64,000 bases of DNA from Candidatus Poribacteria bacterium (GCA_965222225.1 CBDCTK010000002.1:3200001-3264000), one strand, 5' to 3'. Shown: positions 1,964-57,081, counted from the stretch's first letter. The notes: generated from the sequence alone by a model not told the origin. Made by a program: numbers and translations.

Positions 1964-2085
1964 GGGGATTTCTATGCAAGCACTATCGGGATTTACTATG
2001 GGAGTTCTATCGCACTCCTTATTCGGTCGTTTGATCCTTCCTTAACTGTCAGTTGATCGCTCGATATTCATTCGTTTAGTGCTCA
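1964..2085 (-). mobile_element. Nested cluster (3 levels) of the 35-37 nt GA-hairpin micro-element
   Basis: The minus strand parses as ACTAA AC GA AT GAATA TC GA GC G[ATCAA CT GA CA GTTA AG GA AG G[ATCAA AC GA CC GAATA AG GA GT GCGATAG AACTCC]CATAG TAAATCC]CGATAG... Confidence 0.7.
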
Positions 2086-2096
2086 GACTTAGAGGC

Positions 2097-2118
2097 TGGT
2101 GGGCAGTGCCCACCCTAC
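2097..2118 (-). repeat. GTAG-type REP-like palindrome
   Basis: GTAG GGTGGGCA C TGCCCACC A on the minus strand; exact reverse complement of 25350..25371. Confidence 0.8.
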
Positions 2119-2120
2119 AA

Positions 2121-2178
2121 TATTCTGTCGGTTAATCCTTATTCTGTCGGTTGATCCTTATTCTGTCGTTAGATTCTT
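2121..2178 (-). repeat. Three tandem half-copies of the micro-element
   Basis: Plus strand tattctgtcggttaatc / cttattctgtcggttgatc / cttattctgtcgttagattc. Confidence 0.65.
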
Positions 2179-2876
2179 CAGTGGTTTGGGAGATTTAAAT
2201 CGCAGTTAATGCGTTACGACTCGAAAATTGCGTCGAAGCATGTCATAGCTTGGCTTCGTAGATGCTTTTGGCGTCGTGATTGAGTGTGCGAAATACTGCG
2301 ATAAACTGCGAATATGTCTTCGATCGCGTTCACCGCGGTACTGCGACGATTGCCCAAAACAGCGGCAGGCGCTCCGACTGGATGCCACCTAGATTCGCTC
2401 ATGCGCCGATAGTTTCGGCGCCGAAAAGGGACGAAACCCGGCGAACTGGAATAGCGGTTTAGACTCAGATTCGACATTTGGCTCAGTGGTCTTTTCTATT
2501 CTCACGTCACAAAGCGCGCACATAGGTGAACGAGTTCGACACTCGGCGGCATGCGTTGGAGGCGCGTACACTCTTTCAAAGACCGCGGGCAGCATTTGAC
2601 AGCGCCGTTTTAGAGGAAGCGCGAGTGAACGGAATCCAATTAAAACTGATGGGATTCTCGTCCCTGCAGCTCAACCCCAGAAGAAACAAGTGCACAACTA
2701 TCACTAGCCGGCATTGACGATTCGGCATCATTATACTATACCTCTGTATAGTTATCAATCTAAAACAATGGAGGAGTTGCCAGAGGGAAGTGATGGCTCA
2801 AGCTGCACATGAAATTGCGTTAATAGCTCAATCTATCCTTCGGAGACCGATTATTTTAAATACACATGTCGATATG

Positions 2877-3761
2877 TCATTCTAAATGACGTGTCTTGAT
2901 GCCGCCCCACATCAGAGGCAACTTCTCCAACGGACTGACGGCGAGGCTCATTATTCCCCTTATTTCTTCATCATTCATCGGTCTATTCCAGAAACGCACT
3001 TCATCATATCTCGCAGGAAAGAACCCGGTGCCCGGATTGCCTCCATCACCGACCGCATGAATCCCCATCCATATCTTTTTTCTGGCTTTATCGCTATCCG
3101 GCTTGTCGTTAAGCGCTCTTGAGAAATCTCCCGCCCGTCCGATGAACTCCCCATCAATATAGGCTCTAAGTTCTTTGGCGCCTTCATCGCGCACCCCTGC
3201 GATATGGTGCCATTCCCCGTCGTTCAATTTCGGCTTATCCGTTATGACGCCGGGGGTGCCGGCACCCGAAGCTACAAACACATTCACTGCCGCAAATCGA
3301 AACTTGTCGTCCCCGTCAATATCCGAAAAGAAGAACATCGACCAGTGCCCTTTATTGTGTCCGTCAGTCCCATGTCCTCCGAAAATGAGATGCCCGTGGA
3401 AGCCGCTAACAACAGCCTCCGGCACCTTGGGAGCTTTAGCCGTGGTCATCAGCCACAGTTCGGCAGTGAACGAGCCACGCTCCGCCTCAATCAGCTCTGG
3501 TGTTAAATTGATTTCCACATACCCGGTTTCGCCGTCCAGTTGTAAAGCCCTCCCCCGTTTCCCCTGAAGGATTTTCGTCCCGCCGATAATCTTGCCGCCT
3601 CCCGTTTTGCCCGTGAGATCTCTCGCTATCCCGCCCGTGCTGTCGTCAAAGGGCAGATAAAGCAACAAGCTATCATCAAAAGCGTTGATAGGCAGAACGA
3701 TGGCTATGAAAAGTACGCCGGATGCCATTGCGATGAATAGGTTCATCCTGTTTCTCGACAT
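2877..3761 (-). CDS. Secreted LamG/concanavalin-like domain protein
   Basis: Signal peptide, LLLYLPFD, SFTAELW, DGEWHHIAGV, YDEVRFWN, C-terminal AVSPLEKLPLMWGGIK. Start placed at ATG 3761 behind GGAG (the track uses TTG 3776). Confidence 0.85.
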   Translation of the reverse strand: MSRNRMNLFIAMASGVLFIAIVLPINAFDDSLLLYLPFDDSTGGIARDLTGKTGGGKIIGGTKILQGKRGRALQLDGETGYVEINLTPELIEAERGSFTAELWLMTTAKAPKVPEAVVSGFHGHLIFGGHGTDGHNKGHWSMFFFSDIDGDDKFRFAAVNVFVASGAGTPGVITDKPKLNDGEWHHIAGVRDEGAKELRAYIDGEFIGRAGDFSRALNDKPDSDKARKKIWMGIHAVGDGGNPGTGFFPARYDEVRFWNRPMNDEEIRGIMSLAVSPLEKLPLMWGGIKTRHLE

Positions 3762-3908
3762 TTCGTTCTCCCACAACTTAGAACAACTTTGATTAACCCA
3801 AGCCAGTTTGACATACTGTCCATAGGGGGTAAATGCCTTGGGCTTCGACGGTTTTGCCCCCCAAGTAACGAACTTTTTTGGTTGTGCTAACTGCGTTTCA
3901 GATAGGTT

Positions 3909-4727
3909 TTAAACAGACTCCTCCCGATCAAAGAGAGCCAATTGATCCTCATTCAGAGTATCGGCACGAAGGTGAATCAAATGCAAGGCTTGCTCGGCAG
4001 TAGATTCCTTCTCGTCGCCGTCTTGGTCTACAAGGCACTTCACAATTATACCTTTGCCCCTCACATGTACAAGCAATACCATCTGAACGGTGAGAAGAAC
4101 AATGCGCGTGCAAGTATCAATGAGTTTCAAATGACGATGCTCGGAAGATTGCAAGTTCGTTTTGCCTTCCCCCCAATCGTCTGGACGAGGTAGATATGCG
4201 CTACCATGCGCGAGGTCGTTGCGGATATCTTTAACGACGTTCAAACCAAGCCCGTTCAAATCGTCGGAGTCGTTTAGTTTGAACGCGTCACTACGCACTT
4301 CGTAAGTAGCATCCTCCTCTATGAATTTACGTAGGGAATATAAAGTGTCTTTGTAACCAGCAATGGGACGGCTTGGGCTATAGTTTTGCTTCAAGAACTT
4401 GATTGTTTTATCCACGACGCCGTATCGCTCTATACCTAAAAAAACCTTAGCTACAGTCTCAAAACTACCCCACACGAAATTAAAAATTATGAGTCTTGTG
4501 GTGAGATTTGACAGCAACTCACTGCGCTTATCTTCGTAAGCCATAGCTGTTCCACAATACGCTAGGGTGTCATCGTGCTTTGCTGTTGTCACCTTGACGC
4601 TTTCAACGCCAGCGGCGATGTCTAGCCAAGCCATTGCGTTCAAAAACGGGACCTGATCCCATTGGCTTAGAAACTCCTTTAATTCAAAACAGTGTTCTTG
4701 TAAATCAATAAGTTGATTGCGGCGCAT
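3909..4727 (-). CDS. Hypothetical protein with HEPN-type RxxxxH motif
   Basis: 272 aa with strong RBS (AGGAAGGAG); IRNDLAHGS matches the HEPN R-x4-H motif; divergent from sspB. Confidence 0.55.
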   Translation of the reverse strand: MRRNQLIDLQEHCFELKEFLSQWDQVPFLNAMAWLDIAAGVESVKVTTAKHDDTLAYCGTAMAYEDKRSELLSNLTTRLIIFNFVWGSFETVAKVFLGIERYGVVDKTIKFLKQNYSPSRPIAGYKDTLYSLRKFIEEDATYEVRSDAFKLNDSDDLNGLGLNVVKDIRNDLAHGSAYLPRPDDWGEGKTNLQSSEHRHLKLIDTCTRIVLLTVQMVLLVHVRGKGIIVKCLVDQDGDEKESTAEQALHLIHLRADTLNEDQLALFDREESV

Positions 4728-5316
4728 TTCTTCTCCTTCCTCCTTATCAATAATGAAGTCTTAGTTAGGTTGGCCTTGTAGCGGCCCGTCTGAATTTTTG
4801 AAATTAGTCTTTGCGAACAGTCATCTTCGGCTAAATGCTTTGAGACTCCCGTGAATCTGCCAATTGAACCACGAAAAAACACCTTGCCATCTACGTTTCA
4901 AAGCCAATCTGAAGTCTGTAAATCACTTGAATGCGTGAATTGCCATTGCGACAATAATCAGTGGACTTGCAATGAAATGACAAAAAATCTCTCAGGCAGT
5001 TGGAATCCTAAGAGTTGCTCACCATGGCACTATACTCCGTGCATAAGGTCACCGGAACCCCATCTGCCTACTCAATACCTCAATTCATTTCTGTTGATCC
5101 GCTGTCGTAATTGTGCTACACTAAACATCTAATAATACGATAATAAAGAGCATTCTTCAATAATAAAAAACAGACATGTAATTATCCACTGGGACGTCAT
5201 GTTAGAAAAGCTAGTGGAATTGAATCTCCAGCTAGTGTTCTCAGTCATGAACGTAACATCACTAGAGATATGGGACGATTGACATATTCTGATGTTTTGT
5301 TGGTTGCAGGTTGTGA

Positions 5317-6246
5317 GTGATGAAGTATAGATATTCTGGACACGGTACATTCCCTTGCCGGTATACTTGGCTCCCTAAAGCAGTCGTTGCCTTGAAAAAT
5401 AAACCTCATCTATTTAGCGATGTAGATGAGGCGATGGTTGAGCTGGGCGTTGGCAGGCAAATGGTGCGCGCGATAAGATTTTGGGTTGAAGCCGCAAAGG
5501 TTGTCAAGAAAGACGGAAAGGACGAGTTTAAAGTAACTTCATTGGGCAGAATGGTAATTGGAGAAGACGGTCTAGATCCATATCTGGAAGATTCCCAAAC
5601 GCTTTGGCTAATTCATTGGAATTTCTCAACTCACAGTGAAAATCCTATCTTCGCTTGGGATTTCCTTATGAATCAGTGGCAAGAACCAGAGATAATTCCA
5701 TCGCTCGCGGTCAAAGCCTTTGAAAAAGAGGCTGTCCAGCATGATAAACGACGGTCAAAGGTTACACTCAAGGAGCACTTTGATGTTTTTCTTCATACTT
5801 ACCTACCAACACGGGGAACGAAAGGTGATATACTTGAGGATAACCTTGATTGTCCTTTGATCGAACTGGATTTGATTCGGCAAGTAGGAGAGCGGATTTC
5901 GGACGGCCAAAACGGGAAACGAGAACCGGTATATGCTTTCAATCGTGATCATAAGCCGCAAATCAGCCAGGCGCTTTTTGTCTACTGCTTGAATGATTTC
6001 TGGAATACCCATCATGATCGAGAAGGGACTTTGCCATTTCGTGAAGTTGCTTCTGGACGTGGCAGTCCAGGTCAGGTTTTCAAATTGCCGGAACAAGAAA
6101 TTGTGAATCGCCTAGAAAACATCGAAAACAGTACGAACGGTGCGATAAGTTTTCACGAATCAGTGAATTTGAGTCGAATTCAAAGACATCAAGAAATTGA
6201 TCGGGACGAGTTGTTGGCAGCTATTTATCCTCCTGAAGAGGTTTAG
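5317..6246 (+). CDS. sspB: DUF4007 family protein, SspB-like nickase
   Basis: YSGHGTFPCRYTWLPK, LGVGRQMVRAIRFW and DPYLEDSQTLWLIHW are DUF4007 signatures; first gene of the ssp operon. Confidence 0.85.
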   Translation: MMKYRYSGHGTFPCRYTWLPKAVVALKNKPHLFSDVDEAMVELGVGRQMVRAIRFWVEAAKVVKKDGKDEFKVTSLGRMVIGEDGLDPYLEDSQTLWLIHWNFSTHSENPIFAWDFLMNQWQEPEIIPSLAVKAFEKEAVQHDKRRSKVTLKEHFDVFLHTYLPTRGTKGDILEDNLDCPLIELDLIRQVGERISDGQNGKREPVYAFNRDHKPQISQALFVYCLNDFWNTHHDREGTLPFREVASGRGSPGQVFKLPEQEIVNRLENIENSTNGAISFHESVNLSRIQRHQEIDRDELLAAIYPPEEV

Positions 6247-6249
6247 ATA

Positions 6250-9200: not shown

Positions 9201-9768
9201 TCTGACTGAGCTGCGGAATGCCTATACCGAGTTACTTGAACGTCTAAAATTTGCCATTTTCGAGGCATTTGAGGTGTCAGGTAGTTTTTCACAAGCGCGA
9301 GGTTCTCTTTCAAGCCACGCCGACGCTTTACGGATTAATGTTACGGAATCCCAACTTAAAGCCCTCTGCGGCCGCTTGAGTGACAGGACGCTGTCTGAAA
9401 CGAAATGGATTGAGTCGGTTGCCAGTTTTATCGCTTCAAAACCTCCATCCTATTGGTACGATTCGGATGAAGTCGCGTTCCAAAATGAACTTTCAGACTT
9501 CGCAGAGCGTTTCAAGCATGTTGACGGTATCTATTTCGGGACGGAAGATAGATCTGCACGTGGAGAAGGAGTTCGCCTTGCAATCACGCGCTCGGACGGG
9601 AGTGAAAGGGCTGCGGTCATGTATCCCCGACCTGAAGAAGAGAGGATATTGGACGATATCCAAAAGCAAATTCGCGCCTTAATGAGAGATCGCCCTCGTT
9701 TGGGCTTGGCTGCCATCGCACGGACAGTGTGGGATGAACTCAACGAAGGTTCTGAAAAAACACGATAA
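6250..9768 (+). CDS. sspC: Large ATPase, SspC-like
   Basis: Walker A GDYGTGKS, Walker B LLIIDELGKFLE, EWEKVAGRF, FGQNERSLFSF; 1172 aa between DUF4007 and a PAPS reductase. Confidence 0.85.
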   Translation: MNRTVAHLFRINPRFLRSTHLERDFSNPDSCAGYIPTDFTRTCLKRLAEGLATNSTNRAWRLTGDYGTGKSSFALVLAHLFSGQQNGPLEKLRKSVNIDDFGFENQSLVPILVTGNRLPLGFDLQSALRKSLATGNDVSYTKLPSKLQHFAKVLDKDTPPQLEFRPAEGEIPGIGDQEIVDALILYSEFIKSDSKGSGVLLIIDELGKFLEYAAMYPERQDIYLLQQLAEAASRSGETPFFVLGLLHQGFSAYTDRLDTTSKQEWEKVAGRFEEIIFNQPLDQVVLLLSSALGVRKNGVSVTHQEETAAQMTFALRRGWFGPAPPRKSWQNKAARLFPIDPLAVPIIVRTMHRFGQNERSLFSFLQSSEPYGLQAFSSQLSLQDARLYRIHDFYDYVRANLSHSINLSSTQTHWMTVESIVSSCVTDDILELQVLKTIGMLNLLNANDLLPTESIVVQAVAGTQDDLRSRATHTIDTLKDEKRILYDRGIAGGLCLWPHSSVDLDSAYKDAERAIGSIDKVSERIQAYLEPRPIVARRHYIETGNLRHFRIQYLTASAFAQIVPQSEGGDDGTIIVVLCDSPQERQQTLQTAKNSVFTNHPQIIIAVPDPLHNVADYLRDSLCWEWVGKNILELNTDPYARDEVSRQRKAALERLEKRISDLINLRDYSGKMAFDWFSERKSLPISNCKQLLKHLSDVYNRVFPQAPRIQNELINRQNLSVAAAAARLRLIGGMLERESQLNLGMPTNKRPPEMSMYLSVLKQGNIHVKAEKTWYIQEPLPDADSCHILPALRQIELVLKSKPDKKIAVSELFVELRKPPFGIRNGLIPLLLAIYIAAHRQDIAIFEDGTFVREVRRDDFLRLTKAPEYFEIQHSEIEGIRASVFDQLIKVLGIQRTSGERTSRILDVVRPLCTFVVELPEYVHNTKKLSQEAIAVRNTLMSAGEPAPLLFRDLPIACGDAPFDATESIGDSRVQDFAEKLKTYLTELRNAYTELLERLKFAIFEAFEVSGSFSQARGSLSSHADALRINVTESQLKALCGRLSDRTLSETKWIESVASFIASKPPSYWYDSDEVAFQNELSDFAERFKHVDGIYFGTEDRSARGEGVRLAITRSDGSERAAVMYPRPEEERILDDIQKQIRALMRDRPRLGLAAIARTVWDELNEGSEKTR

Positions 9769-10610: not shown

Positions 10611-10614
10611 TGCG

Positions 10615-25371: not shown

Positions 25372-25458
25372 TTCCCGGTTGAGTTCATACTAATACCATT
25401 TCTATATATTTTCAGTGCATAAATTGCGTCAATCAAGTCGTTCCAAGGCAGGGCAAGG

Positions 25459-25508
25459 GGATCTCTATCGCGGTCGTTATCCACTCCCTTGATCTATTCG
25501 CTCAGTTT
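25459..25508 (-). mobile_element. Micro-element inserted into the left half of another copy
   Basis: Minus strand AA CT GA GC GAATA G[ATCAA GG GA GT GGATA AC GA CC GCGATAG AGATCC]C. Confidence 0.7.
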
Positions 25509-25736: not shown

Positions 25737-25801
25737 GCTATCGCCTTCGCTATGGGATCTTCTATCGCGTTCGTTATTCACTCACTTGATCTCAGTTGAT
25801 C
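25737..25801 (-). mobile_element. Nested micro-element pair
   Basis: Minus strand G ATCAA CT GA G[ATCAA GT GA GT GAATA AC GA AC GCGATAG AAGATCC]C ATA GC GA AG GCGATAG. Confidence 0.75.
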
Positions 25802-25857
25802 GGTTTTGGGGCAGATGGTTCTACTTTTTTAGGCTAATATAACAAAAATTTTTTAGA

Positions 25858-25886
25858 TTGATAACTTAACGTATGTGTGGTATATT
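25858..25886 (+). promoter_or_regulatory. Sigma70-like promoter, copy 1 of a duplicated promoter
   Basis: TTGATA-17 nt-TATATT; flanks match 26585-26620 (ttttagattga.aacttaac). Confidence 0.5.
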
Positions 25887-26093
25887 TTAGTAGAATTCAA
25901 GCGGTTATGCGAGAAAATTGACGCTTGCGAGATTTCGATAGGAGAAAAAGGCTATAGACAATTTGGATAGTTTGCCACAACAGCCTACCGAAAGACAATA
26001 TGTTTCTGTGTTGCTATCCCACAATGTACTGGCGGCATAGGCACTCAAAAACGGAGGTGCCCGCTTGCAGGATAATATTGGAGTCATTGGATT

Positions 26094-26384
26094 ATGACCG
26101 AGGAAAAAGATGTTGGCTTAAAGCAATGGGTACGCGAGATAGATAAAAAGGTGGATAACATACTTGAATTCATGCACAAGATGGAAGTCCATCTCGACTA
26201 CACATCCAAGCGTATCGATACCCAGTGCGAAAAGTTGGCAATTCAGGACAATCGGCTTAAAGCGGTCGAGGACGAAATCCAAAAGCACAAGGGGGAGCTC
26301 ACGATGCTCAAGTGGATTTTGTCCGGGATTGGCGTAATTGTGGCGGCGGCGGTTCCGATTGTTATGATAGCAAAAGGTGGTTAA
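26094..26384 (+). CDS. Small coiled-coil protein with C-terminal TM helix (XhlA/holin-like architecture)
   Basis: 96 aa; heptad-rich region followed by WILSGIGVIVAAAVPIVMIA. Confidence 0.55.
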   Translation: MTEEKDVGLKQWVREIDKKVDNILEFMHKMEVHLDYTSKRIDTQCEKLAIQDNRLKAVEDEIQKHKGELTMLKWILSGIGVIVAAAVPIVMIAKGG

Positions 26385-26477
26385 TAAAAAGAATAAACAT
26401 CTTTCCATAATGTCCCGGAACCCGACGGCATTACAGACAACCTCGTTGATCGCGGCTTGGACTTGGCAATACAAGCC

Positions 26478-26544
26478 AATCAGTCGACCAGATAGGAAGG
26501 GATCAACTGAACGAATAGTGAAGGCGATAGCAAATCATAGTCTC
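26478..26544 (+). mobile_element. Nested micro-element pair
   Basis: AATCAG TC GA CC AGATA GG AA GG G[ATCAA CT GA AC GAATA GT GA AG GCGATAG CAAATC]ATAG TCTC. Confidence 0.7.
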
Positions 26545-26591
26545 GATGAAAGTTACTATGAGAGTTTTATATATTTTTGATAATTTTTAGA

Positions 26592-26620
26592 TTGACAACT
26601 TAACATATATATACTATACT
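26592..26620 (+). promoter_or_regulatory. Near-consensus sigma70 promoter
   Basis: TTGACA-17 nt-TATACT in an AT-rich stretch. Confidence 0.6.
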
Positions 26621-29161: not shown

Positions 29162-29594
29162 CGAGTCTAACAGCAATACCATAGACTACAATGTCAACAC
29201 AACGTACCACGCGGAAATGCCTAATTTAACCGCCGATGTGGACGTGGCGGCCGCGACGTGGTCCGAAGCCGAGCACACCGGACAAGAGATAGATTTTAAT
29301 CTCAATAACGCAGGTACCACAACTCAGCACGCCCACGTTCGAGATAATCGAAATGTGATCGCCTATGGCGGCACACTGCCAAGTGGATGGGCCGCCGGCG
29401 TCTATACCTGGATACAGAACGACGTCATCCTGGAAGCGGATATGATGTTCAATTACTATCTGGATTTCGAACTGCATCCGGATTGGCAGCAAGGCGATGT
29501 ATGCATCCGCAACGTGGCAACCCACGAATTCGGACACTTCGTCCACCTGCTCGATTTGGCCCGGGTTGCCATAGTTCACCCGGATAGGTCTTGA
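29034..29594 (+). pseudogene. Matrixin-like secreted Zn metalloprotease, C-terminally truncated
   Basis: GGAGG RBS, signal peptide, EADMMFN, VATHEFGH; fused to IS630 sequence just after HLLDL. Confidence 0.65.
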
Positions 29595-30297
29595 CTGCAA
29601 TTGGCCCCATTTCATCAATGCAAATTGTTCGCGTGTCCGGTGGAGGCGCGATGTACGCCGAAATTATGGCCCCCTTTTTTCCACGAACTGTTCGTCCTGT
29701 TTTTCCGCATTATGAAACCAACTCTGCTGACGTTTCCAATTCAGCCCTTCTTCAGTTATCCAGCTCCATATTGTTGAATCGGAGAGATGAATCCCTTCTC
29801 TTTCTTTGAAGCTAATTTGCAGACGTTCTAGCGTCCACAACTCAAATGGATAATCCAGACTCGACGGTCTTTGCATCGCTAAATCAATCAGTTTACTGCG
29901 AACCTCTATCGAATGCGTTTTCGGTGCGCCGCTCCGGGGTTTATCAGCAAGTCCTTCAATGCCTTCGTCGTTGAAGGGATTTTCTATCGCGCTCCTTATT
30001 CAGTCGCTTGATCGCTTAATCCATTGCGCTCCGGAAACCCCCGTTTGAATCCAGCTTGTAGGGCGGCTTTGGAACTCGTTAGTTGGTTGTCATCAATCAT
30101 ATTGACGATGAGTTGAGCTCTTTGGACGAGCTGGTGAGATTGGGTACGTGAGTTAGCTAGAGTCCTAAGTTGGTGTTCTTCTGTTTCACTAACCGTACGA
30201 ACATAATGAACTCGTTTTCCCATTATGAATTCTCCTTTCCATTTCGGTTGAATGGGCAGGAGAATTATATCATAATTACTTGCCGAGAGAACCACTA
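29548..30297 (-). mobile_element. IS630-family transposase remnant
   Basis: Reconstructed MGKRVHY...QRAQLI...[22 protein letters not shown]...WTLERL...EK(A6G slippery site at 29674-29680)GAII...ICIDEMGP; TA end at 30296-30297; remainder of the DDE domain missing. Confidence 0.85.
29977..30012 (-). mobile_element. Single 36-nt micro-element inserted in the IS630 ORF
   Basis: AAGCG[ATCAA GC GA CT GAATA AG GA GC GCGATAG AAAATCC]CTTCAAC; removal restores W-I-K-R-F-N-D-E-G. Confidence 0.85.
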
Positions 30298-30379
30298 AGT
30301 ATCCAGCCGAAAATTAGAAGGTCACGTGCCATGATGTTACTCCAACTTAAAAATGTCCGATAACAAACCGTATCGGACG

Positions 30380-31902: not shown

Positions 31903-31961
31903 GGATCTCTATGGGATTTCTATCAGGATTTGCTATCGCATTCGCTGTTCGCTCATTTGAT
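31903..31961 (-). mobile_element. Micro-element followed by two orphan 3' ends
   Basis: Minus strand G[ATCAA AT GA GC GAACA GC GA AT GCGATAG CAAATCC]TGATAGAAATCC CATAGAGATCC. Confidence 0.7.
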
Positions 31962-31980
31962 CGCCACGGGCGCTCTTAAA

Positions 31981-32042
31981 GGCTGGTGTGATCTCTATCG
32001 CGCTCATTATTCATTTGCTTATGATCGCAGTGCGCACCCTAC
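31981..32042 (-). repeat. GTAG REP palindrome interrupted by a 37-nt micro-element (31989..32025)
   Basis: Removing 31989..32025 restores GTAG GGTGCGCA C TGCGCACC AGCC, the same family as 2093..2118. Confidence 0.8.
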
Positions 32043-37460: not shown

Positions 37461-37550
37461 TCTATTCTCGCCCATTTCCTCACATTGAGATCCTGTTTGA
37501 AAACTAGATGGAAAAGTCATTTAGGGCATTTGGAGTGATAGTACCTGCGA

Positions 37551-37698
37551 GAGTTCTATCGATCAACCGAGTGAATAGCGAGGGCGATAGCAAATCCTGC
37601 TCATTTGATCTATTCGCTCGGTTGAGGGATCTCTATCGGAATTTGCTATCGCGTTCCCTATTCGGTCACTTGATCCCTCCTTATTCAGTCGGTTGATC
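37551..37698. mobile_element. Composite of at least five micro-element copies in both orientations
   Basis: Plus-strand unit 37562..37597; minus-strand nest G ATCAA CC GA CT GAATA AG GA GG G[ATCAA GT GA CC GAATA GG GA AC GCGATAG CAAATTC]CGATAG AGATCC; additional half units. Confidence 0.8.
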
Positions 37699-39559
37699 CC
37701 ACGGTATCGACAAAGCTTGTATACCCGGGCCCACCGGCGCCCACATAGCCATGACTCGCGCCGGATTCGTCCGGGCTTACCCAAAACGAATAGAGCTCCC
37801 CCAGCCTCAGATGAAAGCGAAATTTAACGGGTTCACCCGCCACGCTTGATAGGTCGGCTCCGCCTTTCCACTCCACCCGATGCGATGTTCTGTTGGCCGT
37901 GAGAGGCACACAGTTATCCACTGTGAACGGCTCAACGACGTTGCCATCCTCATCAAGTACCTCCACCCGCAGTTCACCTTGATCGCAGTCCGTGTTCGCA
38001 AACAAGTACTTACCGGAAAACTTGAGCGGCCTTGTCGTCAGTGTACCGGTGTTCCGGACCGAGCCCATAGAGGCGAACCCGTCGCGCCTCAAGAACGCAA
38101 GCCCCGTATTCACGAACCCGTCCCATAGCTTTCCCTTTTCCGGGAGGTTGCGCCCCGTGAAATACAGGTACAATTTATCTCCGACAACCAGACACGCACC
38201 GCTTGCCGACTGTACATTTCCCCAGTTCCATGCGCCGGGGCTTTCCGTTGCCTCAAAAAAAGGCCGGCGATCCGGGCGGTCGTAATGGAACCCGTCCCTG
38301 CTGTAACCGAGCAGCACCTCGTTCCGCTTCGGTATGTGTTTTACGTGGCACACGTCGTTATCCGGCCCCTGCCAAATCGAAAAGTACCCAAGCATTAAAC
38401 TCTCATAGGCGACCGTGTCGAAATGATACAACTGCGGCAATATTTCTGCACTATCCGGGTTCGGGTTGCGAGGATCGAGCCGGTCCGCACCCAGCCACGG
38501 AACCACCTCACCACCAGGTCTAACCTCTGCCAATTTCACGGCTTCGACAGGGGTATCCCCCTCAACGTACGCACGCGCCCGACCGGTCTCTCGTCCACTG
38601 CGTATGTTAATAATCCACTTGTCCCGGAAGGGGTTGTAGTGCGCGTTCGTGTGGTCCCCGACCACCCCTGCTGAGCTGGCTATCGGCTCAGACCAGTGTA
38701 TGCCATCGGCTGAAGTCCTGTAGGCAACAGCGGAGTCTTCACCGAGGCGCTCAGGTAAGCCTATATGCCACGTTGTGTAGAAAATCTTGTATCGGGCTAA
38801 CCGGTCGCTGGTGTCGTAGTCAATCCAAACGCTTGTGGTATCAATCGGTCGTATGTGCTTCTTTTCTGGCCACTGCGGCGGTATCGGCGGCAACTCCACC
38901 CCGTGGTCAATCACGATGTTCGTTCCCGGCAGCACGTCCTGCTCGGTCTTCTCCCAGTGAACCCCATCCTTGGACGTTGCGTAACAACTGTACTTGATGT
39001 AACCGCCGACGTACCACATCTTGAATAGCTCGTCCTTCGGGTCGTACCAGACGCCGCCGCTGAAGGGACCGGCAAAGGGCGCGGGCCCATGATGTTCCCA
39101 CTCCCTGTCCGGCTTGATGATCGGGTTTCCCTCGTAGTAGGTTGGCTGGTGGAACGTGCGTTGCAGCGTGGTCTCCTCAATCAAGAAATCGTCCACGAAT
39201 AGTTGTCTTCCAACGTCAATGTTGATAACCTCGGGCGGATTTTCGAGATACGGGACAGGCATCGGATCCCGCGTCCATCCGCCGTAATCCGGCGGCCATT
39301 TCTCAGGCAGAACGATACCGTTGTAAAGTTCCTCGCCTGTGTCGTTCTGCTTGTCCTTCATTCTTACCTCCGATTGTCCTTCTCGCCCGGAATCTTGGTC
39401 GGTTTCCGTGACCGCAGCGAGCACTATGTGAGGACCAGATTTGCTGGAAATGTATTCTGTCGACGAACCTGATGGGGCGTTCCCGATCGCCATGGTATTC
39501 ACGAGCCAAACGCCCACAAAAGCTACCCCAAGGATTCCGTAGATTTTAATCGTTCCCAT
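37685..39559 (-). CDS. Secreted GH32/GH43-like five-bladed beta-propeller protein
   Basis: GRQLFVDDFLI, YATSKDGVHWEK, YSRDGFHYDRP, LRRDGFASM, LYSFWV; start taken at MGTIKIY. Confidence 0.75.
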   Translation of the reverse strand: MGTIKIYGILGVAFVGVWLVNTMAIGNAPSGSSTEYISSKSGPHIVLAAVTETDQDSGREGQSEVRMKDKQNDTGEELYNGIVLPEKWPPDYGGWTRDPMPVPYLENPPEVINIDVGRQLFVDDFLIEETTLQRTFHQPTYYEGNPIIKPDREWEHHGPAPFAGPFSGGVWYDPKDELFKMWYVGGYIKYSCYATSKDGVHWEKTEQDVLPGTNIVIDHGVELPPIPPQWPEKKHIRPIDTTSVWIDYDTSDRLARYKIFYTTWHIGLPERLGEDSAVAYRTSADGIHWSEPIASSAGVVGDHTNAHYNPFRDKWIINIRSGRETGRARAYVEGDTPVEAVKLAEVRPGGEVVPWLGADRLDPRNPNPDSAEILPQLYHFDTVAYESLMLGYFSIWQGPDNDVCHVKHIPKRNEVLLGYSRDGFHYDRPDRRPFFEATESPGAWNWGNVQSASGACLVVGDKLYLYFTGRNLPEKGKLWDGFVNTGLAFLRRDGFASMGSVRNTGTLTTRPLKFSGKYLFANTDCDQGELRVEVLDEDGNVVEPFTVDNCVPLTANRTSHRVEWKGGADLSSVAGEPVKFRFHLRLGELYSFWVSPDESGASHGYVGAGGPGYTSFVDTVGSTD

Positions 39560-48101: not shown

Positions 48102-48187
48102 GTGACCTGTAAACGACTTAGAAGAGTAAACTCCAATTATAGCATGCTTGCATCCGAACTCAAGGAAATCGCATCTGATGATGGGAG

Positions 48188-48223
48188 ATCAAGCGACCAG
48201 ATTGGGAGTGGGATAGAGATTCC
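48188..48223 (+). mobile_element. Degenerate micro-element copy
   Basis: G[ATCAA GC GA CC AGATT GG GA GT GGGATAG AGATTCC]T. Confidence 0.6.
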
Positions 48224-48328
48224 TCCGCAGTGCCGTCCCATGATTGTAATTGTAACGAACAATCACGGCTGTCCCGACTGGACGGCGTGCATTCTTCAAT
48301 GATCAACTGATGATTGCCCATTACGAAA

Positions 48329-49330: not shown

Positions 49331-49348
49331 TTTCAACTACGCGTTACG

Positions 49349-49413
49349 ATCAAACGAGTGAATAGCGAGTGCGATAGAAGATCCCATAGTAAATCCCGTG
49401 CGATAGCAATCCC
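49349..49413 (+). mobile_element. Micro-element plus two orphan 3' ends
   Basis: G[ATCAA AC GA GT GAATA GC GA GT GCGATAG AAGATCC]CATAGTAAATCC CGTGCGATAGCAATCC. Confidence 0.75.
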
Positions 49414-51834: not shown

Positions 51835-51899
51835 CGGCTCATGAGCAGCTTTTCACGTTGCGCTTGGCGTCGGAAGGTGAAAATTGAAGAAGGTAGAAC

Positions 51900-51934
51900 G
51901 AAACCGAGTTTCTCCTTGGAAGCTCGGTTTCTTT
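51900..51934 (+). terminator. Probable terminator after topA
   Basis: GAAACCGAGTTTC...GAAGCTCGGTTTC followed by TTT. Confidence 0.55.
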
Positions 51935-52080
51935 AACTGCCGGTCTGAAGCAGGTACTCATGATTATGCCGCGAACTCGACCTGCAAACCTCCGCTGCTA
52001 GCTATGTCAACCCCTAATAAATAGTGCACGACCGCATCTAAAATGCGTTAACTTCACTTGTACTCAAAAGCGGTGTTCAC

Positions 52081-53805
52081 GTGACAAACGACCAAATCGG
52101 CACAGTATTCCTCAATATCGGACATCTCCTCCAAATTCAGGGTGAAGACTCCTACCGCGCAAGAATTTACGAGCGCGCGGCAGATACGATTGAAAATCTT
52201 GATGTCGATCTCGCTCAACTGGCAGAGGAAGGCAGACTTCAATCAATTCCCGGCATCGGCAAAGCCATTGAGGGAAAAATTGTCGAAATGCTGGAGACCG
52301 GTCAATGCCGTTTCTATGAAGCCTTGATTGCGGAAATGGGAGAGGAAGTGCTCGACCTGCTGCGAATTCGGGGTGTTGGGGTAAAAACGTCATCAAGGTT
52401 TTACAACGAACTCGGCGTGAGAAATTTTCAAGATTTGCGGGCAGCAATTGATGGCGGCAAATTCAAGCTACTAAAGGGTATCGGTTCAAAGACCATCGCT
52501 CAGATTGATGAAGGCTTGCGTTTCCTTGAAATCCAAGACGGCATGCGCCCACTCTGGCGAATCTTGCCGATTGCACAAGCAATTATTCAAATATTGAGGG
52601 ACGCGCCCGAGATAGCGCGAGTGGACTTTACGGGTGAGATGCGGCGGCACGAAGAGATGCTTAATCAACTTGAGCTAACAGTTGAGTGCACCTCCCCCAC
52701 GATAATTGTCGAGGCGCTTTCCAAGGTTGGTGGCGTGAAGGAGTTTGAATCCAAAGAAAGCACTATCTCCGGGGGACAGTGCATTAAGGCATCCGTCGAC
52801 GATGGGTTCCCGCTCCGTGTTCACGCATTCGGTAGCGAGGAATACGAAGCAGGACTGCTGATAACAACCGCTACCGCTGAACACCTAGCGGCATTCGATC
52901 GGATTGTGGGAACGCACAATCGGGAGAAGAGCGAAGGGCGTTTGCCGGATTGGATGAGGGGCAAAACAGAGTCTTCAATCTATGATGCAGTCGCTTTACC
53001 CTTTATCCTTCCGGAATTGCGGCGAGACGAGGACTCAATTGAGGTGGCTGCCGCCGGGGCGCTGCCAACCCTGATTGAATTAATCGACATTCGCGGAGAT
53101 TTGCACACGCACACCGAGTGGAGCGATGGCAGGCACTCGATACGCGAAATGGTGGAAGCCGCAAAAGCATGTGGACACGAGTACATTGCCATTACCGACC
53201 ATTCGGTGTCATCGCGCGTGGCAAACGGATTAACCCCCGATCGGCTACTGGCGCACATGAATGAGGTTCGAAGCATAAACAAAGAAGTGAGTGGCATTGA
53301 GGTTCTCGCAGGTTCCGAAGTGGACATCCAAAATGATGGAAGCCTCGACTTTACCGACGATGTTCTGGCACAACTTGATATCGTAGTCGCTAGTGTGCAC
53401 GCCGGATTTAACATGAGCGAAGCGGAAATGACGAAGCGAATGATTTGTGCAATCGAGAATCCGTTCGTTAACATCATCGGACACCCTACAGGTCGATTGC
53501 TTGGTCGACGCCCCGGATACGCATTAAACCTTGATGCGGTAATTCAAGCGGCGGCTGAACACCATGTCGTCTTGGAAATCAATTCCTCTCCAAACCGACT
53601 GGACTTGGAGCCGGACATGGCAAGAAAGGCAAATGAAGCAGGCGTGCTATTGACGATGAACACCGATGCCCACGCAGTGCCTCAGCTTCAACAAAGCCGT
53701 TTTGGAATCAACGTTGCGCGTCGCGCATGGCTAACAAAAGACGCGGTCATCAACACATATTCGCTGGACGCCTTGCATAAACTATTGCAAGTCCGAAATG
53801 CGTAA
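52081..53805 (+). CDS. polX: PolX/PHP family protein
   Basis: HhH motifs IPGIGKAI and IRGVGVK; PHP motifs DLHTHTEWSDG, ITDHS, GHPTGR, NTDAH. Confidence 0.9.
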   Translation: MTNDQIGTVFLNIGHLLQIQGEDSYRARIYERAADTIENLDVDLAQLAEEGRLQSIPGIGKAIEGKIVEMLETGQCRFYEALIAEMGEEVLDLLRIRGVGVKTSSRFYNELGVRNFQDLRAAIDGGKFKLLKGIGSKTIAQIDEGLRFLEIQDGMRPLWRILPIAQAIIQILRDAPEIARVDFTGEMRRHEEMLNQLELTVECTSPTIIVEALSKVGGVKEFESKESTISGGQCIKASVDDGFPLRVHAFGSEEYEAGLLITTATAEHLAAFDRIVGTHNREKSEGRLPDWMRGKTESSIYDAVALPFILPELRRDEDSIEVAAAGALPTLIELIDIRGDLHTHTEWSDGRHSIREMVEAAKACGHEYIAITDHSVSSRVANGLTPDRLLAHMNEVRSINKEVSGIEVLAGSEVDIQNDGSLDFTDDVLAQLDIVVASVHAGFNMSEAEMTKRMICAIENPFVNIIGHPTGRLLGRRPGYALNLDAVIQAAAEHHVVLEINSSPNRLDLEPDMARKANEAGVLLTMNTDAHAVPQLQQSRFGINVARRAWLTKDAVINTYSLDALHKLLQVRNA

Positions 53806-53926
53806 CTCTCCTCTCGCATGAATCCAAACAATTTGACTCTCCGCACGTTAAATTATATGGCGCAACCGTTCGCTACGCGCCTATCCATAGAATTCTGAAT
53901 GAATAGTCACAAAATCGGGGATACCC

Positions 53927-55759
53927 ATGAAGATCCAAATAGACAACCAAATCTACGATATTGACGAAGAAATCTTGCGCCTCTGGTTGCGAGTTGGGTC
54001 TATCCCTGTTGAAACTTTCGTTTTCTCAGAGACGCTCACGGATGGCAAGTGGGTGCCGATTCACGAACTAGGCTGGAATAACGAGCAGAATTGGGCACAA
54101 GCTGCCGACGAACCGCATCCATTTAGGCGAGAGTTCGAGAAGGAGAGGCAATTTCTTTCCTATCAAAGACGGATGCCGATTGTTACCCTTGCTCTGATAA
54201 CCCTGAATACAATCGCCTTTATCTTGTTAGACCAATTTGTTGGGCGTTCACAGGACGTAGCGAACCTTATCCGGTTTGGAGCGTATTCCTACCCCTTAAT
54301 AGTCGAGAATGGGGAATACTGGCGGCTGATTACGAACACCTTCCTGCACATCGGGAGTTTTCATTTCCTTCTTAACATGGGAATCCTATTCATACTAGGA
54401 AACCTGCTTGAAGGGTTGTACGGAAGGTCACGTTTTATCATTCTCTATTTGATTTCAGCCATTGGAGGCAGTTTGGCGAGCCTGATTTTTGTCCGAGTCG
54501 CCATTGGAGCGGGCGCTTCCGGCGCGATTTTCGGCCTCATGGGCGTGGTCGTCGCTCTCGGATTGCGCCATCAAGACCGCCTGCCGTTACGGCGAGGACG
54601 AGTCTTTGGAATGCGTCTGCTGCCTTTCATTGCGCTTGATGTTGTTCTCGGTTTTGTCATTCCTCACATTAACATCGCCGCCCATATCGGGGGGTTGGGG
54701 GTCGGATTCGCCACAGGCTTGATTTTGTCGCCGGCTATATACGCCGATGGCGAACGCGAGAGCTACGGCGTGAAAGCGATTGCGGCGGTATTCGTTGGCT
54801 TGACAGTTCTGAGCGGCGCTGTGACGATACAACGATTCTTTAATCCTTCCCAAATTGCCGAAAGGCGTGCGAATGACGGTTTTCGGTCATTGCCATCTTC
54901 TGCCGAACTTCCAGAGTACATTGAGCGTGTCGAGCAGATGTTGCGTAATCGCGATTACACACGAGAATCGTACAGTCTCCTTGCGGGACTCTACTGGGAG
55001 GCGCTACGTACCGATCCGGAGAATTCGTCTTGGGTTCAAAAACTTAGGGGATTTTATGAGCGAGCGCTCCTTGAAGAGCCCAACTACTCGAATTGGAATG
55101 ACGGTCTTCTGAGATTATATCTGTATCAAGCCGAGGTTGTGGGACGGAAGAACGAGACGGAAAACCTCTCAGACTACACTGGACTATGCGAGAAGGTCAT
55201 ACGCAAGAAAGGCTACCATCAAATCCTGTGTCGGAATCTGGAGTATTTCTACACACGTGGAAAATCCTTGAACCCCGATCAGATTTCCGACTGGGATGCG
55301 GAACTTGAAAAACTGTATCGGGAAGCCATCGTCGGTGACCCCGAGTACGCAAATTGGTACAATAACCTCGCGTGGCTCTATGTTGAACAGGGAGAGAATT
55401 CTGGACAGGCGGTTGAATTGGCACGGCAGGCAGTCAAACTCGATTCCAAAAACTCAACAATGCTGGACACACTCGCGTGGGCGTACCTGCAAAATGGTCA
55501 ATTTCGAAAATCTCTGAGAACCTACGAGCAAGTGCTTTCAATCCGTTCCGACTCCGACGAAAATAAGCTTGCGAGAGAGAGTAGCTGGAACGGCGTGAAC
55601 GAGTGGGTACAGACGGGAGTTTCGCCGTCAAAATCGGAGGAACACGTTCAAGTCTTTGAGAAATTCTACTCCTACATGTCCCGCCAATTCACTAATCGTC
55701 CGGAGGAACAGGCAAAGCTGGATGTCGCCTTCGAGAAATTCCAAGCGAATTATTATTAG
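53927..55759 (+). CDS. Rhomboid intramembrane protease fused to a TPR region
   Basis: WRLIT..FLH, GASGAIFG, AHIGG; C-terminal NNLAW...LDTLAWAY TPRs. Confidence 0.85.
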   Translation: MKIQIDNQIYDIDEEILRLWLRVGSIPVETFVFSETLTDGKWVPIHELGWNNEQNWAQAADEPHPFRREFEKERQFLSYQRRMPIVTLALITLNTIAFILLDQFVGRSQDVANLIRFGAYSYPLIVENGEYWRLITNTFLHIGSFHFLLNMGILFILGNLLEGLYGRSRFIILYLISAIGGSLASLIFVRVAIGAGASGAIFGLMGVVVALGLRHQDRLPLRRGRVFGMRLLPFIALDVVLGFVIPHINIAAHIGGLGVGFATGLILSPAIYADGERESYGVKAIAAVFVGLTVLSGAVTIQRFFNPSQIAERRANDGFRSLPSSAELPEYIERVEQMLRNRDYTRESYSLLAGLYWEALRTDPENSSWVQKLRGFYERALLEEPNYSNWNDGLLRLYLYQAEVVGRKNETENLSDYTGLCEKVIRKKGYHQILCRNLEYFYTRGKSLNPDQISDWDAELEKLYREAIVGDPEYANWYNNLAWLYVEQGENSGQAVELARQAVKLDSKNSTMLDTLAWAYLQNGQFRKSLRTYEQVLSIRSDSDENKLARESSWNGVNEWVQTGVSPSKSEEHVQVFEKFYSYMSRQFTNRPEEQAKLDVAFEKFQANYY

Positions 55760-55867
55760 TTCAGGATTTTCGCACTCTCGCTTGTTATTGGAGGGCACCT
55801 ATCCCTGGAAGAAATCGTCGAACAACGAGATTTTGAGGCGTCACGCCGCAAGTCAAAAAAACACCTT

Positions 55868-56347
55868 ATGAAAAACTTAACACATTTCGACGAGGAAGGA
55901 CACGCGCGAATGGTTGATGTCACCCCCAAGCCGGAGACCAAGCGCATTGCGATAGCCTGCGGGCATGTAACTGCCAAACCGGACACGATTCGCTTGATTG
56001 CCGATCGAGGTTTCAAGAAAGGGGACGTCCTTGAAGTGGCGCGTCTAGCTGGCATCATGGCGGCAAAGCGAACGGGCGATCTCATCCCGCTGTGCCATCC
56101 GCTAACACTTACCTCCGTCAAAGTTGACCTCTCCATTAACAACGCTGAAAACCGGGTTGAAATTGAAGCCGAGGTGCAAACGCTTGGACGCACAGGCGTG
56201 GAGATGGAAGCTCTCACTGCGGTTGCCGTTGCCGGTTTAACCGTCTACGATATGTGTAAAGCCGTTGACCGAGAGATGGTCGTTTCTGAAATACGACTAC
56301 GTAAAAAGATGGGTGGCAAGAGCGGTACATTCGAACGACGCGAATAG
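55868..56347 (+). CDS. moaC: Cyclic pyranopterin monophosphate synthase
   Basis: LTHFD..G.ARMVDV, LIPLCHPL, TGVEMEAL, YDMCKAVD. Confidence 0.96.
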   Translation: MKNLTHFDEEGHARMVDVTPKPETKRIAIACGHVTAKPDTIRLIADRGFKKGDVLEVARLAGIMAAKRTGDLIPLCHPLTLTSVKVDLSINNAENRVEIEAEVQTLGRTGVEMEALTAVAVAGLTVYDMCKAVDREMVVSEIRLRKKMGGKSGTFERRE

Positions 56348-56460
56348 TCAACTGTGTGGAAAACCCGCATTCGCACTATTAAACCATACAGTTGCGATAA
56401 ATCTCGCCGTTGGTCTTTCGCTAGCGCGGATACCTAGCTATCTCCCTTCGCAGGTCAATC

Positions 56461-56859
56461 TCATCGAAGAGTATTCCAAGGCGACTCATCACCGACTTCT
56501 ACTAACTGATATCCTTCATCCCCGCTGCACGGTCCCAAAGTAACAAACAGTTTCGCCGGTGCCGATGAAATGTTGAATGATGCATGCACGACATCCGCCG
56601 GAATGAATACCGAATCGCCTGCGTTCAACTCCTGTCGCCGATCTTCCAACCACTGTTCGATGCTCCCCTTTATAACGTAAATAACCTCCTCCTGAGCCGG
56701 ATGTTTGTGAAAATTGTGGCCGCCACCGGGCATAAGATTAACCTCAATTGCCACAAGATCTTTTGCTCCGGTTGTTTGAGGACGACTTAACCACGTCATC
56801 GTTCCCCAGTCCAGTTCGTCCCGCTCGGCTTCGGATGCCGCGACGAATTTTCCCTGCAT
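56461..56859 (-). CDS. Cupin domain protein
   Basis: HNFHKHPAQEEVIYV...GDSVFIPADVVH. Confidence 0.85.
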   Translation of the reverse strand: MQGKFVAASEAERDELDWGTMTWLSRPQTTGAKDLVAIEVNLMPGGGHNFHKHPAQEEVIYVIKGSIEQWLEDRRQELNAGDSVFIPADVVHASFNISSAPAKLFVTLGPCSGDEGYQLVEVGDESPWNTLR

Positions 56860-57015
56860 AACATAGTCTCCTTGGTCGTTTTCGTTACCATTGGTACGTA
56901 CGAAAAATGCTCTTCATATCTTTAATTTTGGTAGCTTCCCACACGGCGGATTATATCACGATCAATCGATGGCGTCAATTGCTGAATACAGAGCAATCGC
57001 ATCTGATTGTAGGCG

Positions 57016-57081
57016 ATTCAATGAGCGAATAGATCAATCAAACGAATAGCGCGCGCGATAGTAATCCTGCGATAGAGATCC
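57016..57081 (+). mobile_element. Nested, degenerate micro-element pair
   Basis: ATTCA AT GA GC GAATA G[ATCAA TC AA AC GAATA GC GC GC GCGATAG TAATCC]T GCGATAG AGATCC. Confidence 0.6.

Follow-up and report, generated by a model that had tools for sequence, protein, structure and literature searches.

A window of 64,000 nucleotides (GCA_965222225.1 CBDCTK010000002.1:3200001-3264000) from a metagenome-assembled genome (MAG) of Candidatus Poribacteria, whose assembly of 5.7 Mb in two contigs is called G000 below, carries many copies of a dispersed element of about 36 nt, which is built of ATCAA, a hairpin, GCGATAG and a short tail. This element is mobile DNA, it is restricted to a few genera of Poribacteria, and one of its strands keeps a defined fold while the sequence of the stems changes freely. 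The explanation that accounts best for these properties, with a probability of about 0.55, is that of a mobile, non-coding, ultra-small element whose single-strand hairpin is acted on in trans. As far as could be found, the element is undescribed: the literature searched held no description of such an element in Poribacteria and no dispersed repeat zippered by G-A pairs. The earlier note on this DNA, made from the sequence of the window, had recognised no known family, and Rfam gives no match at the gathering score in the 64-kb window; when the limit is relaxed to E <= 10 for positions 37480-37720, the best match reaches 19 bits against a threshold of 75.

Fold and Folding Strand

The notion that one strand folds into a hairpin with G-A mismatches, kept by shape over sequence, was first put forward in the earlier note, and it is supported by the covariation found in two sets of 809 and 137 copies, by an excess of G-T pairs and by the invariance of the G-A positions. 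The fold was examined without presupposing a structure: only ATCAA and GCGATAG were fixed, and the 17 positions between them were read in 809 copies of the genome. Positions 3-4 are G and A (94% and 98%), positions 14-15 are again G and A (98% and 97%), position 7 is G (97%) and position 11 is A (98%), and the three loop bases between the last two read R-A-T. The three G-A pairs, made from positions G3/A4, G7/A11 and G14/A15, are therefore 94-98% invariant, and the variation is found in the other four pairs. Pair (1,17) is Watson-Crick in 581 copies, G-T in 192, A-C in 7 and of another kind in 29; the corresponding figures are 750, 23, 11 and 25 for pair (2,16), 758, 24, 11 and 16 for pair (5,13), and 680, 104, 12 and 13 for pair (6,12). 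Paired copies at each of these four variable pairs thus number 773-784 of 809 (96-97%), as opposed to averages of 406-639 (50-79%) when the partners are shuffled.

The same behaviour is seen in 137 distinct copies from at least a dozen other MAGs, in which 92.3% of the stem cells are paired, 238 cells are double-changed (58 +/- 14 in shuffles) and pairing falls to 19-47% when the partner is slid by 1-3 columns. Kinship among sequences can in itself lift pairing above that of shuffles in the absence of structure. Here the covariation cannot be explained by a few frozen subfamilies, because each pair uses three or four pair types and the 379 distinct copies contain 37 distinct all-Watson-Crick stem combinations, out of the 54 that the alphabets of the positions permit. 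The outer ATC/GAT is invariant across copies and gives no covariation signal either way.

The ATCAA strand is identified as the folding strand because G-T pairs on it outnumber A-C pairs, which would be G-T on the other strand, by 343 to 41. Nearest-neighbour energies also favour this strand over its complement, in 339 of the 379 distinct copies with RNA parameters and in 303 with DNA parameters; with RNA parameters, the minimum-energy structure is the expected one in 278 of them. The surroundings of the G-A pairs are constrained as well, in a strand-specific manner: immediately 5' of each GA there is never an A, and a pyrimidine stands there in 76% of cases; immediately 3' of it there is never a T, and a purine is found in 74-76%; the loop-closing pair is Y-R in 98%. 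In general, 5'-Y-GA-R-3' is the context in which tandem G-A mismatches adopt the sheared, stacked form. Two adjacent G-A pairs are described as stacking across strands without destabilising B-DNA, with a geometry that depends on the sequence (PMC11014236).

Insertion Sites and Mobility

The limits of the element are well defined on the left, where conservation ends at position -1, a G in 95% of 321 copies, while on the right it runs through AG-NNN-TC-C. The tail reads AG-NNN-TC-YY in the genus of the window; in a second genus it reads TCTT or TTTT after the same core, and there too the element lies in or beside GTAG-type hairpins.

Evidence of movement comes from sites that exist in both an empty and a filled state. 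Within the genome, the repetitive extragenic palindrome (REP) GTAGGCGGGG-CATCTTG-CCCCGCC is empty in 16 cases and filled by one element after GGGG in 23, and the REP GTAGGGTGCG-CACTGCGCACC is empty in 63 and filled after its first GCG in 50; at the second GCG of the latter hairpin, 23 are filled and 67 empty. Between species, an orthologous REP just downstream of an IS200-like Y1 transposase gene is filled in G000 and in two relatives of it, G001 and G005, and empty (cacctgt-cg-cccc) in three other species of the same genus (g1), in one genome of genus g4 and in three of genus g6. A unique site is filled in G005, as GGAGGG[element]TTCCGATTC at C1:5219328-5219356, and its orthologue in G000 is empty, as GGAGGG-AA-TTCCGATTC at C2:5278876-5278896. 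When the 72 copies of G005 that lie in spacers with unique syntenic flanks in G000 are compared, 16 are absent from G000, 23 stand opposite an element and 33 are unclassifiable; in the 23 facing pairs, the stems agree in about 10 and differ in about 13. No target duplication is seen in any of the filled/empty pairs. The junction is exact on the left and ragged on the right, where the last two bases of the tail are pyrimidines (CC, CT, TT or TC) and the next 1-3 bases of the target are usually missing. Two other views of the target were rejected: GATC, as a target or as a restriction-ligation route, is not unusual in number (18912 observed, 22011 expected) and the empty targets are not GATC, and orphan tails cannot be the empty targets, given that empty REPs have no tail.

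The element inserts preferentially into other hairpin repeats (REPs) and into the 3' half of its own resident copies, which produces nests, stacked orphan tails and arrays. Of 1034 copies, 283 stand immediately behind a truncated copy in the same strand; in 271 of these 283 insertions the preceding base is a G. Host position 23 (G^CGATAG) received the largest share, 124 insertions, followed by position 19 (the G of the 3' GA, 43), position 12 (the loop G, 38) and positions 17 (32), 18 (21) and 10 (14), with only two at position 8 (the G of the 5' GA). Insertion on the opposite strand at the same G^C of GCGATAG is also found, for example at window position 37562, and re-insertion at the original target G yields ..TCC-C-TCAA... 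The arrangement of head (H) and tail (T) units is HT in 346 cases, HTT in 73, HHTT in 36, HHT in 27 and HTTT in 17. The surplus heads and tails would arise from nested insertion followed by deletion between short direct repeats (ATCAA heads or CGATAG tails), and comparisons of G000 with G005 such as that at C2:2156xxx fit this sequence of events. Neighbours less than 100 nt apart share their orientation in 158 cases and oppose it in 23, and the preference extends to neighbours 1-5 kb apart (196 same, 103 opposite). The region G000:C2 about 1534000-1585000 is very rich in the element and includes head-to-tail arrays with a period of about 38 nt; TCTTGTAG stands there between each GCGATAG and the GATCAA that comes next.

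Copy Number and Distribution

The genome-wide run of the pattern ATCAA..GA..GAATA..GA..GCGATAG that the earlier note had proposed as a check gives 310 exact copies, and the pairing is maintained in them: the outer stem is fully Watson-Crick in 210, altered by wobble only in 78 and mismatched in 22, and the inner stem in 246, 47 and 17, respectively. With up to two mismatches, the core is present in 973 copies, which amounts to roughly 0.6% of the genome (about 36 nt each in 5.7 Mb). ATCAA-N17-GCGATAG occurs 809 times, as opposed to only 0-9 times for each of the other spacings from N12 to N23, and head halves at up to two mismatches number 1420 (about 36 estimated by chance), so that looser criteria place the total at about 1000-1400 copies.

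A scan of one genome per prokaryotic species returned at least 99 stretches with the pattern, and among the 80 matches listed 78 are from Candidatus Poribacteria MAGs; the other two are single matches in Clostridia MAGs, about the chance level for 19 fixed bases. A cyanobacterial origin, which the GCGAT motifs might suggest, is thereby rejected. Viral contigs gave no match to the pattern. Among 41 relatives searched with the exact pattern, all nine genomes of g1 carry 191-470 copies each, all four genomes of g4, which belongs to another family, carry 93-125, one g2 genome carries two, and 26 relatives have none; the reversed pattern is absent from all 41. A covariance model trained on the 137 copies, all from other Poribacteria genomes, finds matches in 17 of 151 genomes of the phylum (5 of 22 genera) and none among 100 genomes of the largest family sampled. 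Among these, two g6 genomes (of 20) and one g12 genome have 1-22 matches; they are fragmented or slightly contaminated MAGs in which binning carry-over is possible.

Orientation Along the Chromosome

On a crude map of open reading frames (ORFs; 81% coding), 825 of 970 copies are intergenic, and between co-directional genes 295 copies are co-oriented with them and 258 opposed. A cis-acting role in transcripts is unlikely because orientation is independent of the flanking genes and copies lie mostly outside them.

Orientation does follow GC skew. With windows of +/-25 kb in G000, regions of positive skew hold 126 plus and 239 minus copies and regions of negative skew 310 and 102; with one vote per 10-kb bin the counts are 54/100 and 112/51 (Fisher p = 2e-9), and when skew is taken from genes of both strands equally they are 140/293 and 394/143. 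The effect of skew persists in a logistic model that includes the regional gene-strand bias, and the element's own composition would shift skew in the opposite direction. The same direction is seen in a contiguous 1.2 Mb of G005, both with +/-25 kb windows (54/133 and 79/63, p = 1.6e-6) and by bins (11/34 and 18/17, p = 0.019). At 99 loci of 8 kb in other species no relation between orientation and skew was found (44/48 and 43/61), windows this small being too noisy. The polarity is about 70:30 and it places the folding strand preferentially on the C-rich strand, that is, on the leading-strand template.

It is known from palindromes in E. coli that hairpins on the lagging-strand template are preferentially lost. 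The polarity may accordingly mean that copies whose stable hairpin lies on that template are lost more often; alternatively, the element may be incorporated into the lagging strand during its synthesis. Both readings imply action at the level of DNA, at the replication fork. Along G000:C2, GC skew changes sign many times at a scale of 100-200 kb, which is not the pattern of two replichores, and the orientation of the element flips along with it; either a heavily rearranged chromosome or the assembly may be the cause of these switches.

Contigs from three metatranscriptome runs and from one other run enter copies of the element and break there. Depth over the repeat is about 10-15 fold higher for the RNA libraries, and for the fourth run about 20 fold higher; such contigs cannot show strand, ends or expression. 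At window position 39559, contigs from two of the RNA-library runs have a 24-nt insertion relative to the window, probably a strain variation.

Candidate Enzymes

The genome holds five matches to Y1_Tnp. Inverted copies of the element flank two of these genes on either side, at a distance of up to about 150 nt. The best match, P0001, has copies on both sides and scores 65.8 bits, above the NCBIfam cut-off of 55 for an IS200/IS605 transposase. Across genera, P0001 is flanked by its own, different REP, GCCCCAGAGGGGCGACAGGTGTATAG, and the element is merely inserted there in some species. Homologues of P0001 occur in 9/9 genomes of g1, 2/4 of g4, 7/7 of g6, 5/10 of g3 and 1/1 of g9, and no Y1 type tracks the patchy distribution of the element. 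A weak reverse-transcriptase-like ORF (27.5 bits) is located at C2:4500547-4501089.

The genes themselves deserve a brief description. The P0001-type gene (G000:C2:3080255-3080728, minus strand) is low-copy, has homologues across several genera of Poribacteria (L124-L138) and lies in every case between copies of its own REP, GCCCCAGAGGGGCGACAGGTGTATAG or a variant particular to the genus, often in tandem arrays; gene and REP together look like a domesticated RAYT-type system with an ATAG-type rather than a GTAG tag. A RAYT-like gene at G000:C2:3088937-3089269 (plus strand) reaches 92.6 bits with NCBIfam REP_Tyr_transpos on its C-terminal ORF and is interrupted by an in-frame TAG, so that it is probably a pseudogene.

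Relation to Known Repeats and Mobile Elements

The element is read as one of the REP or small-dispersed-repeat kind, that is, as a very small non-autonomous dispersed repeat with an unusual, sharply defined single-strand fold. The REP/REPIN-RAYT literature describes short, high-copy, extragenic, imperfect palindromes that are associated with RAYT transposases (PMC3116915, PMC3733652, PMC8266576, PMC2817692), and one of these sources gives a conserved GTAG or CGTC tetranucleotide tag at one end (PMC3733652). Like REPs, the element is short (both fall in a range of 20-40 nt), high-copy, extragenic, imperfectly palindromic and non-coding, it is thought to act as a single-stranded hairpin, and Y1 genes are present in the genome. 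It differs from them in its ends (ATCAA, and GCGATAG plus tail), with GTAG found only in the neighbouring true REPs, in its stem, which is held by conserved G-A pairs and merely 2+2 covarying Watson-Crick pairs, and in the fact that it inserts into the true GTAG-type REPs of the genome and nests in itself. Nor does it form the fixed-spacing inverted doublets of REPINs, its arrangements being HT, HTT, HHTT and HHT, and no cognate RAYT was found, the Y1 genes of the genome being flanked by other types of REP.

The small dispersed repeats (SDRs) SDR4-6 of Nostoc measure 21-27 nt, SDR5 is associated with HIP1, and SDR-like repeats were not found outside the Nostocaceae among HIP1-rich cyanobacteria (PMC5861425, PMC13756078, PMC2884548). 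In the genome studied here HIP1 is rare, with 120 GCGATCGC in 5.7 Mb. The SDRs of Nostoc are reportedly treated by Elhai et al. 2008 (Genome Res 18:1484). By description rather than by sequence, the element resembles SDRs in being very small, dispersed and thought mobile, with a short G/C-rich target and no known enzyme or function, and SDRs are also said to nest in one another; it differs in phylum and in length (36 nt as opposed to 21-27 nt), and the descriptions, as far as seen, report neither a grammar of G-A pairs nor a test of strand asymmetry for SDRs.

Insertion after a specific short target without duplication, a feature of IS200/IS605 elements and of their miniature derivatives, may be shared, the insertion here being after a G and free of duplication, with a target of only 1-3 nt and 1-3 bases lost on the right. 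The likeness extends to a hairpin in one strand and an orientation tied to replication, and the differences are a single hairpin instead of two end hairpins, a target that is little more than G, a ragged right junction, an opposite orientation bias, and the fact that no TnpB and no matching TnpA were found. In IS608 and ISDra2, the active strand is reported to lie on the lagging-strand template (PMC6006769).

Two further groups can be compared briefly. The ends of the element, ATCAA and ..TCC, are not inverted repeats and its filled/empty pairs lack a duplication, unlike those of miniature inverted-repeat transposable elements (MITEs). Integron attC sites are imperfect palindromes of 57-141 nt that fold as single strands; they carry R and L boxes (GTTRRRY) and border gene cassettes located beside an integrase. 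The element resembles them in that its shape is conserved above its sequence, and their boxes, length and cassettes were not seen at it, although no search for an integrase was made.

Proposed Mechanism and Alternatives

It is proposed that the ATCAA strand folds as DNA into a short rod formed by 2 bp, a tandem G-A/A-G, another 2 bp and a G-A pair that closes a 3-nt loop, and that the invariant ATC/GAT may clamp the base of the rod. A trans-acting enzyme, most likely a single-strand-specific nuclease or transferase of the HUH type, would recognise this single-strand shape, and only the copies that keep it would be copied again. The free covariation of the stems, alongside G-A pairs and a frame that do not change, would be accounted for in this way.

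Several observations weigh against this explanation and have to be taken into account. The mean predicted energies are small (-1.1 kcal/mol with DNA parameters, -4.1 with RNA parameters), and three copies of the window folded as DNA do no better than shuffles. Standard parameters give no credit to sheared G-A pairs in DNA; what supports the fold is covariation together with strand asymmetry, not predicted stability, and a protein may be needed for it to form. The exact chemistry of the HUH transposases of IS200/IS605 is not matched by the ragged right junction with its 1-3 lost target bases, and the location of the folding strand on the C-rich strand is opposite to the polarity reported for IS608. 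At 40 scattered 20-kb loci of G005 and G001 there was no relation between orientation and skew (10/10 and 9/7, p = 0.75), in a design whose power, from resampling of G000, is 29%. With respect to the enzyme, P0001 is present in all seven g6 genomes searched, none of which has an exact copy of the element, and was not found in two of the four g4 genomes that carry it; the second Y1 type, which is RAYT-like, occurs in only four of the nine g1 genomes, and no TnpB was found in the genome. Finally, many copies were amplified as passengers in larger repeats, for example 50 of one stem type in one REP context, and copy counts consequently overstate the number of independent events.

A narrower form of the proposal, tentative but the next in order of probability, is that the element represents a new class of ultra-small mobile DNA, defined by a non-Watson-Crick single-strand fold in which three sheared G-A pairs form a zipper and the 2-bp spacers covary freely, whose mechanism is not yet described and whose enzyme would differ from the known Y1 transposases; it would insert 3' of a G in or beside DNA hairpins, with a ragged 3' junction and no duplication of the target, in a manner coupled to replication and with a polarity opposite to that of IS200/IS605. 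The view that it is instead a REP of a special class, belonging to the ordinary REP/RAYT system and served by a resident Y1 transposase (RAYT or IS200-like), is unlikely. The five Y1_Tnp matches, two of them flanked within about 150 nt by inverted copies, would suit it, as would the layout of a hairpin followed by ATAG that is common to the element and the REP of P0001, and so would a high-copy, extragenic, imperfect palindrome of roughly 36 nt. The copies beside Y1 genes, however, lie in the different REPs of those genes, one of which is empty in sister species, and the phyletic patterns of these genes and of the element disagree; the element has neither GTAG nor CGTC tag, its close neighbours are same-oriented or nested (158 vs 23) rather than inverted doublets, and its orientation bias is opposite to that of IS608. 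Movement without any classical transposase, in which short single-stranded copies, either excised or made by a polymerase or a reverse transcriptase, are joined to a nascent lagging strand at a 3' end in G or are captured during repair, would agree with an exact left and a ragged right junction that has two extra pyrimidines and 1-3 lost target bases, with the ATCAA strand lying mostly on the strand that has the sequence of the nascent lagging strand, and with the fact that no transposase tracks the element. The one reverse-transcriptase-like ORF (C2:4500547-4501089) is a weak match, at 27.5 bits, and the orientation bias may equally be explained by the preferential loss of lagging-template hairpins known from E. 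coli; this route is considered improbable.

There is also little probability, of the same order, that the copies are kept by the host for a chromosomal function linked to replication, as protein-binding or structural sites with replichore polarity, and that mobility is only their origin. Orientation polarised with GC skew in two species, the shared orientation of neighbours 1-5 kb apart (196 vs 103) and the 95% of stem cells intact in about 800 copies are what such a function would give. Against it stand a polarity of only about 70:30, the fact that the element was not found in most of the genera of Poribacteria searched, and its heavy turnover: of 72 copies, the sister species lacks 16 and has different stems in the copy opposite about 13; same-stem pairs, moreover, differ by 0-1 base within spacers that are 87-96% identical, which is no clear excess of conservation (about 10 pairs). 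The least probable of these alternatives is that the element acts as RNA, through a small tandem-G-A motif of the kink-turn or loop-E kind that binds a protein or stabilises or terminates transcripts, and that it spread for this purpose. RNA parameters do favour the ATCAA strand in 339 of 379 copies and give the expected fold as the minimum in 278, the tolerance of G-U suits RNA as well as DNA, and contigs of RNA libraries run from flanking genes into copies, although read-through or DNA carry-over would look alike. Orientation is nonetheless unrelated to the flanking genes (295 vs 258) and tracks GC skew after control for gene-strand bias, the copies insert into each other and into REPs regardless of transcripts, the 3-nt bulge of kink-turns is absent, and the best Rfam score remains far below threshold (19 bits vs 75).

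Copies in the Window and Neighbouring Repeats

In the window, the pattern with up to two mismatches has 10 matches, compared with none in 100 dinucleotide-preserving shuffles, and the covariance model has 12 full-length matches (E 3e-13 to 9e-6) and four partial ones (E 0.14-0.55). The 12 sites are those listed in the earlier note, whose coordinates are shifted by a few bases (the tail was counted), and its table of stem dinucleotides proved correct when re-read on the pattern matches, including a C-A mismatch at 2007 and T-G wobbles at 37562 and 49349. Three of the 12 copies, at 31986, 48186 and 57031, are degenerate. Unless otherwise stated, the full copies described next were found by both the pattern and the covariance model, and their stems are given as outer and inner pairs.

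On the minus strand, the copy at 1998..2037 (AC/GT; CC/AG, with the C-A mismatch; 50.9 bits) is followed on its 3' side by two stacked orphan tails at about 1963-1997, where a partial covariance match covers 1963-1988. The copies at 25456..25495 (GG/CC; GT/AC; loop GGATA; 58.8 bits) and 29975..30014 (GC/GC; CT/AG; 58.5 bits) are on the same strand, as is that at 25753..25792 (54.4 bits), which is nested in the 5' half of another copy, with the head of this host (gatcaactgag) upstream and its remainder, catagcgaaggcgatag, downstream. Also on the minus strand are the copy at 31924..31963 (AT/AT; GC/GC; loop GAACA) and the slightly degenerate one at 31986..32027 (ATCATAA, with the 5' GA reading AA; covariance model only, 37.9 bits), which is inserted into a GTAG-type REP hairpin, in its 3' arm behind CACTGCG (GGGTGCGCACTGCG^..ACCAGCC). 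The minus-strand copy at 37637..37676 (GT/AC; CC/GG; 53.8 bits) is nested at the G^CGATAG of its host; the head of this interrupted host, gatcaaccgactgaataaggaggg, is at 37675..37698 on the same strand (partial covariance match 37677-37691) and the remainder of its tail, cgatagagatcc, at about 37627-37638. The copy that the earlier note had listed at 37676 is this split host.

The plus strand holds the copies at 26500..26539 (CT/AG; AC/GT; 50.8 bits) and 37560..37599 (CC/GG; GT/GC with a T-G wobble; 56.2 bits); the latter is inserted in opposite orientation at the G^C of a minus-strand tail and is present in G005 too. The plus-strand copy at 48186..48225 is degenerate, with a loop AGATT and GGGATAG in place of GCGATAG (covariance model only, 34.1 bits). 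The full copy at 49347..49386 (plus strand, AC/GT; GT/GC) is trailed, to about 49412, by the orphan tails catagtaaatcc and cgtgcgatagcaatcc; its site shows different arrangements of the element in G005, G001 and G009, and no alignable empty version of it was found in G004 or G002, where the spacers are unrelated. The last copy, at 57031..57070 (plus strand, 30.1 bits), is degenerate, as the earlier note had claimed, and nested in a second degenerate copy beside a GTAGG tag.

The element is surrounded by other repeats. At least two families of GTAG-tagged REP hairpins, GTAGGCGGGGCATCTTGCCCCGCC and GTAGGGTGCGCACTGCGCACC, are present in dozens of copies and are its preferred landing sites; examples are found at G000:C2 1951670, 3668334 and 1553585, and in the window at 32013-32040 (minus strand) and about 57008-57016. 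A segment of roughly 720 bp at 29550-30301 is multicopy in the genus, with about a dozen copies in G005 at 79-91% identity, and its two short ORFs give the impression of transposase pieces. Another multicopy repeat, of roughly 820 bp at 25796-26617, has a copy of the element on each side, in inverted orientation, and encodes a 96-aa ORF (26094-26384, plus strand) with a predicted coiled coil and a hydrophobic tail.

Significance

How the smallest bacterial repeats spread is a long-standing question: for REPs there is a candidate enzyme and little direct evidence of movement, and for the SDRs of cyanobacteria there is no candidate. The element may be a natural DNA repeat in which sheared G-A pairs serve as a conserved feature for recognition, of which no report was found in the literature searched. 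It is a clear test case: its filled and empty sites are clean, nested events number in the hundreds, the target rule is simple, and covariation sharply defines the important positions of the fold. Binding and cleavage assays with 36-mer oligonucleotides could be designed directly from it. Given that short-read contigs end at its copies, the element also matters for the assembly and comparison of the MAGs of Poribacteria that live as sponge symbionts.

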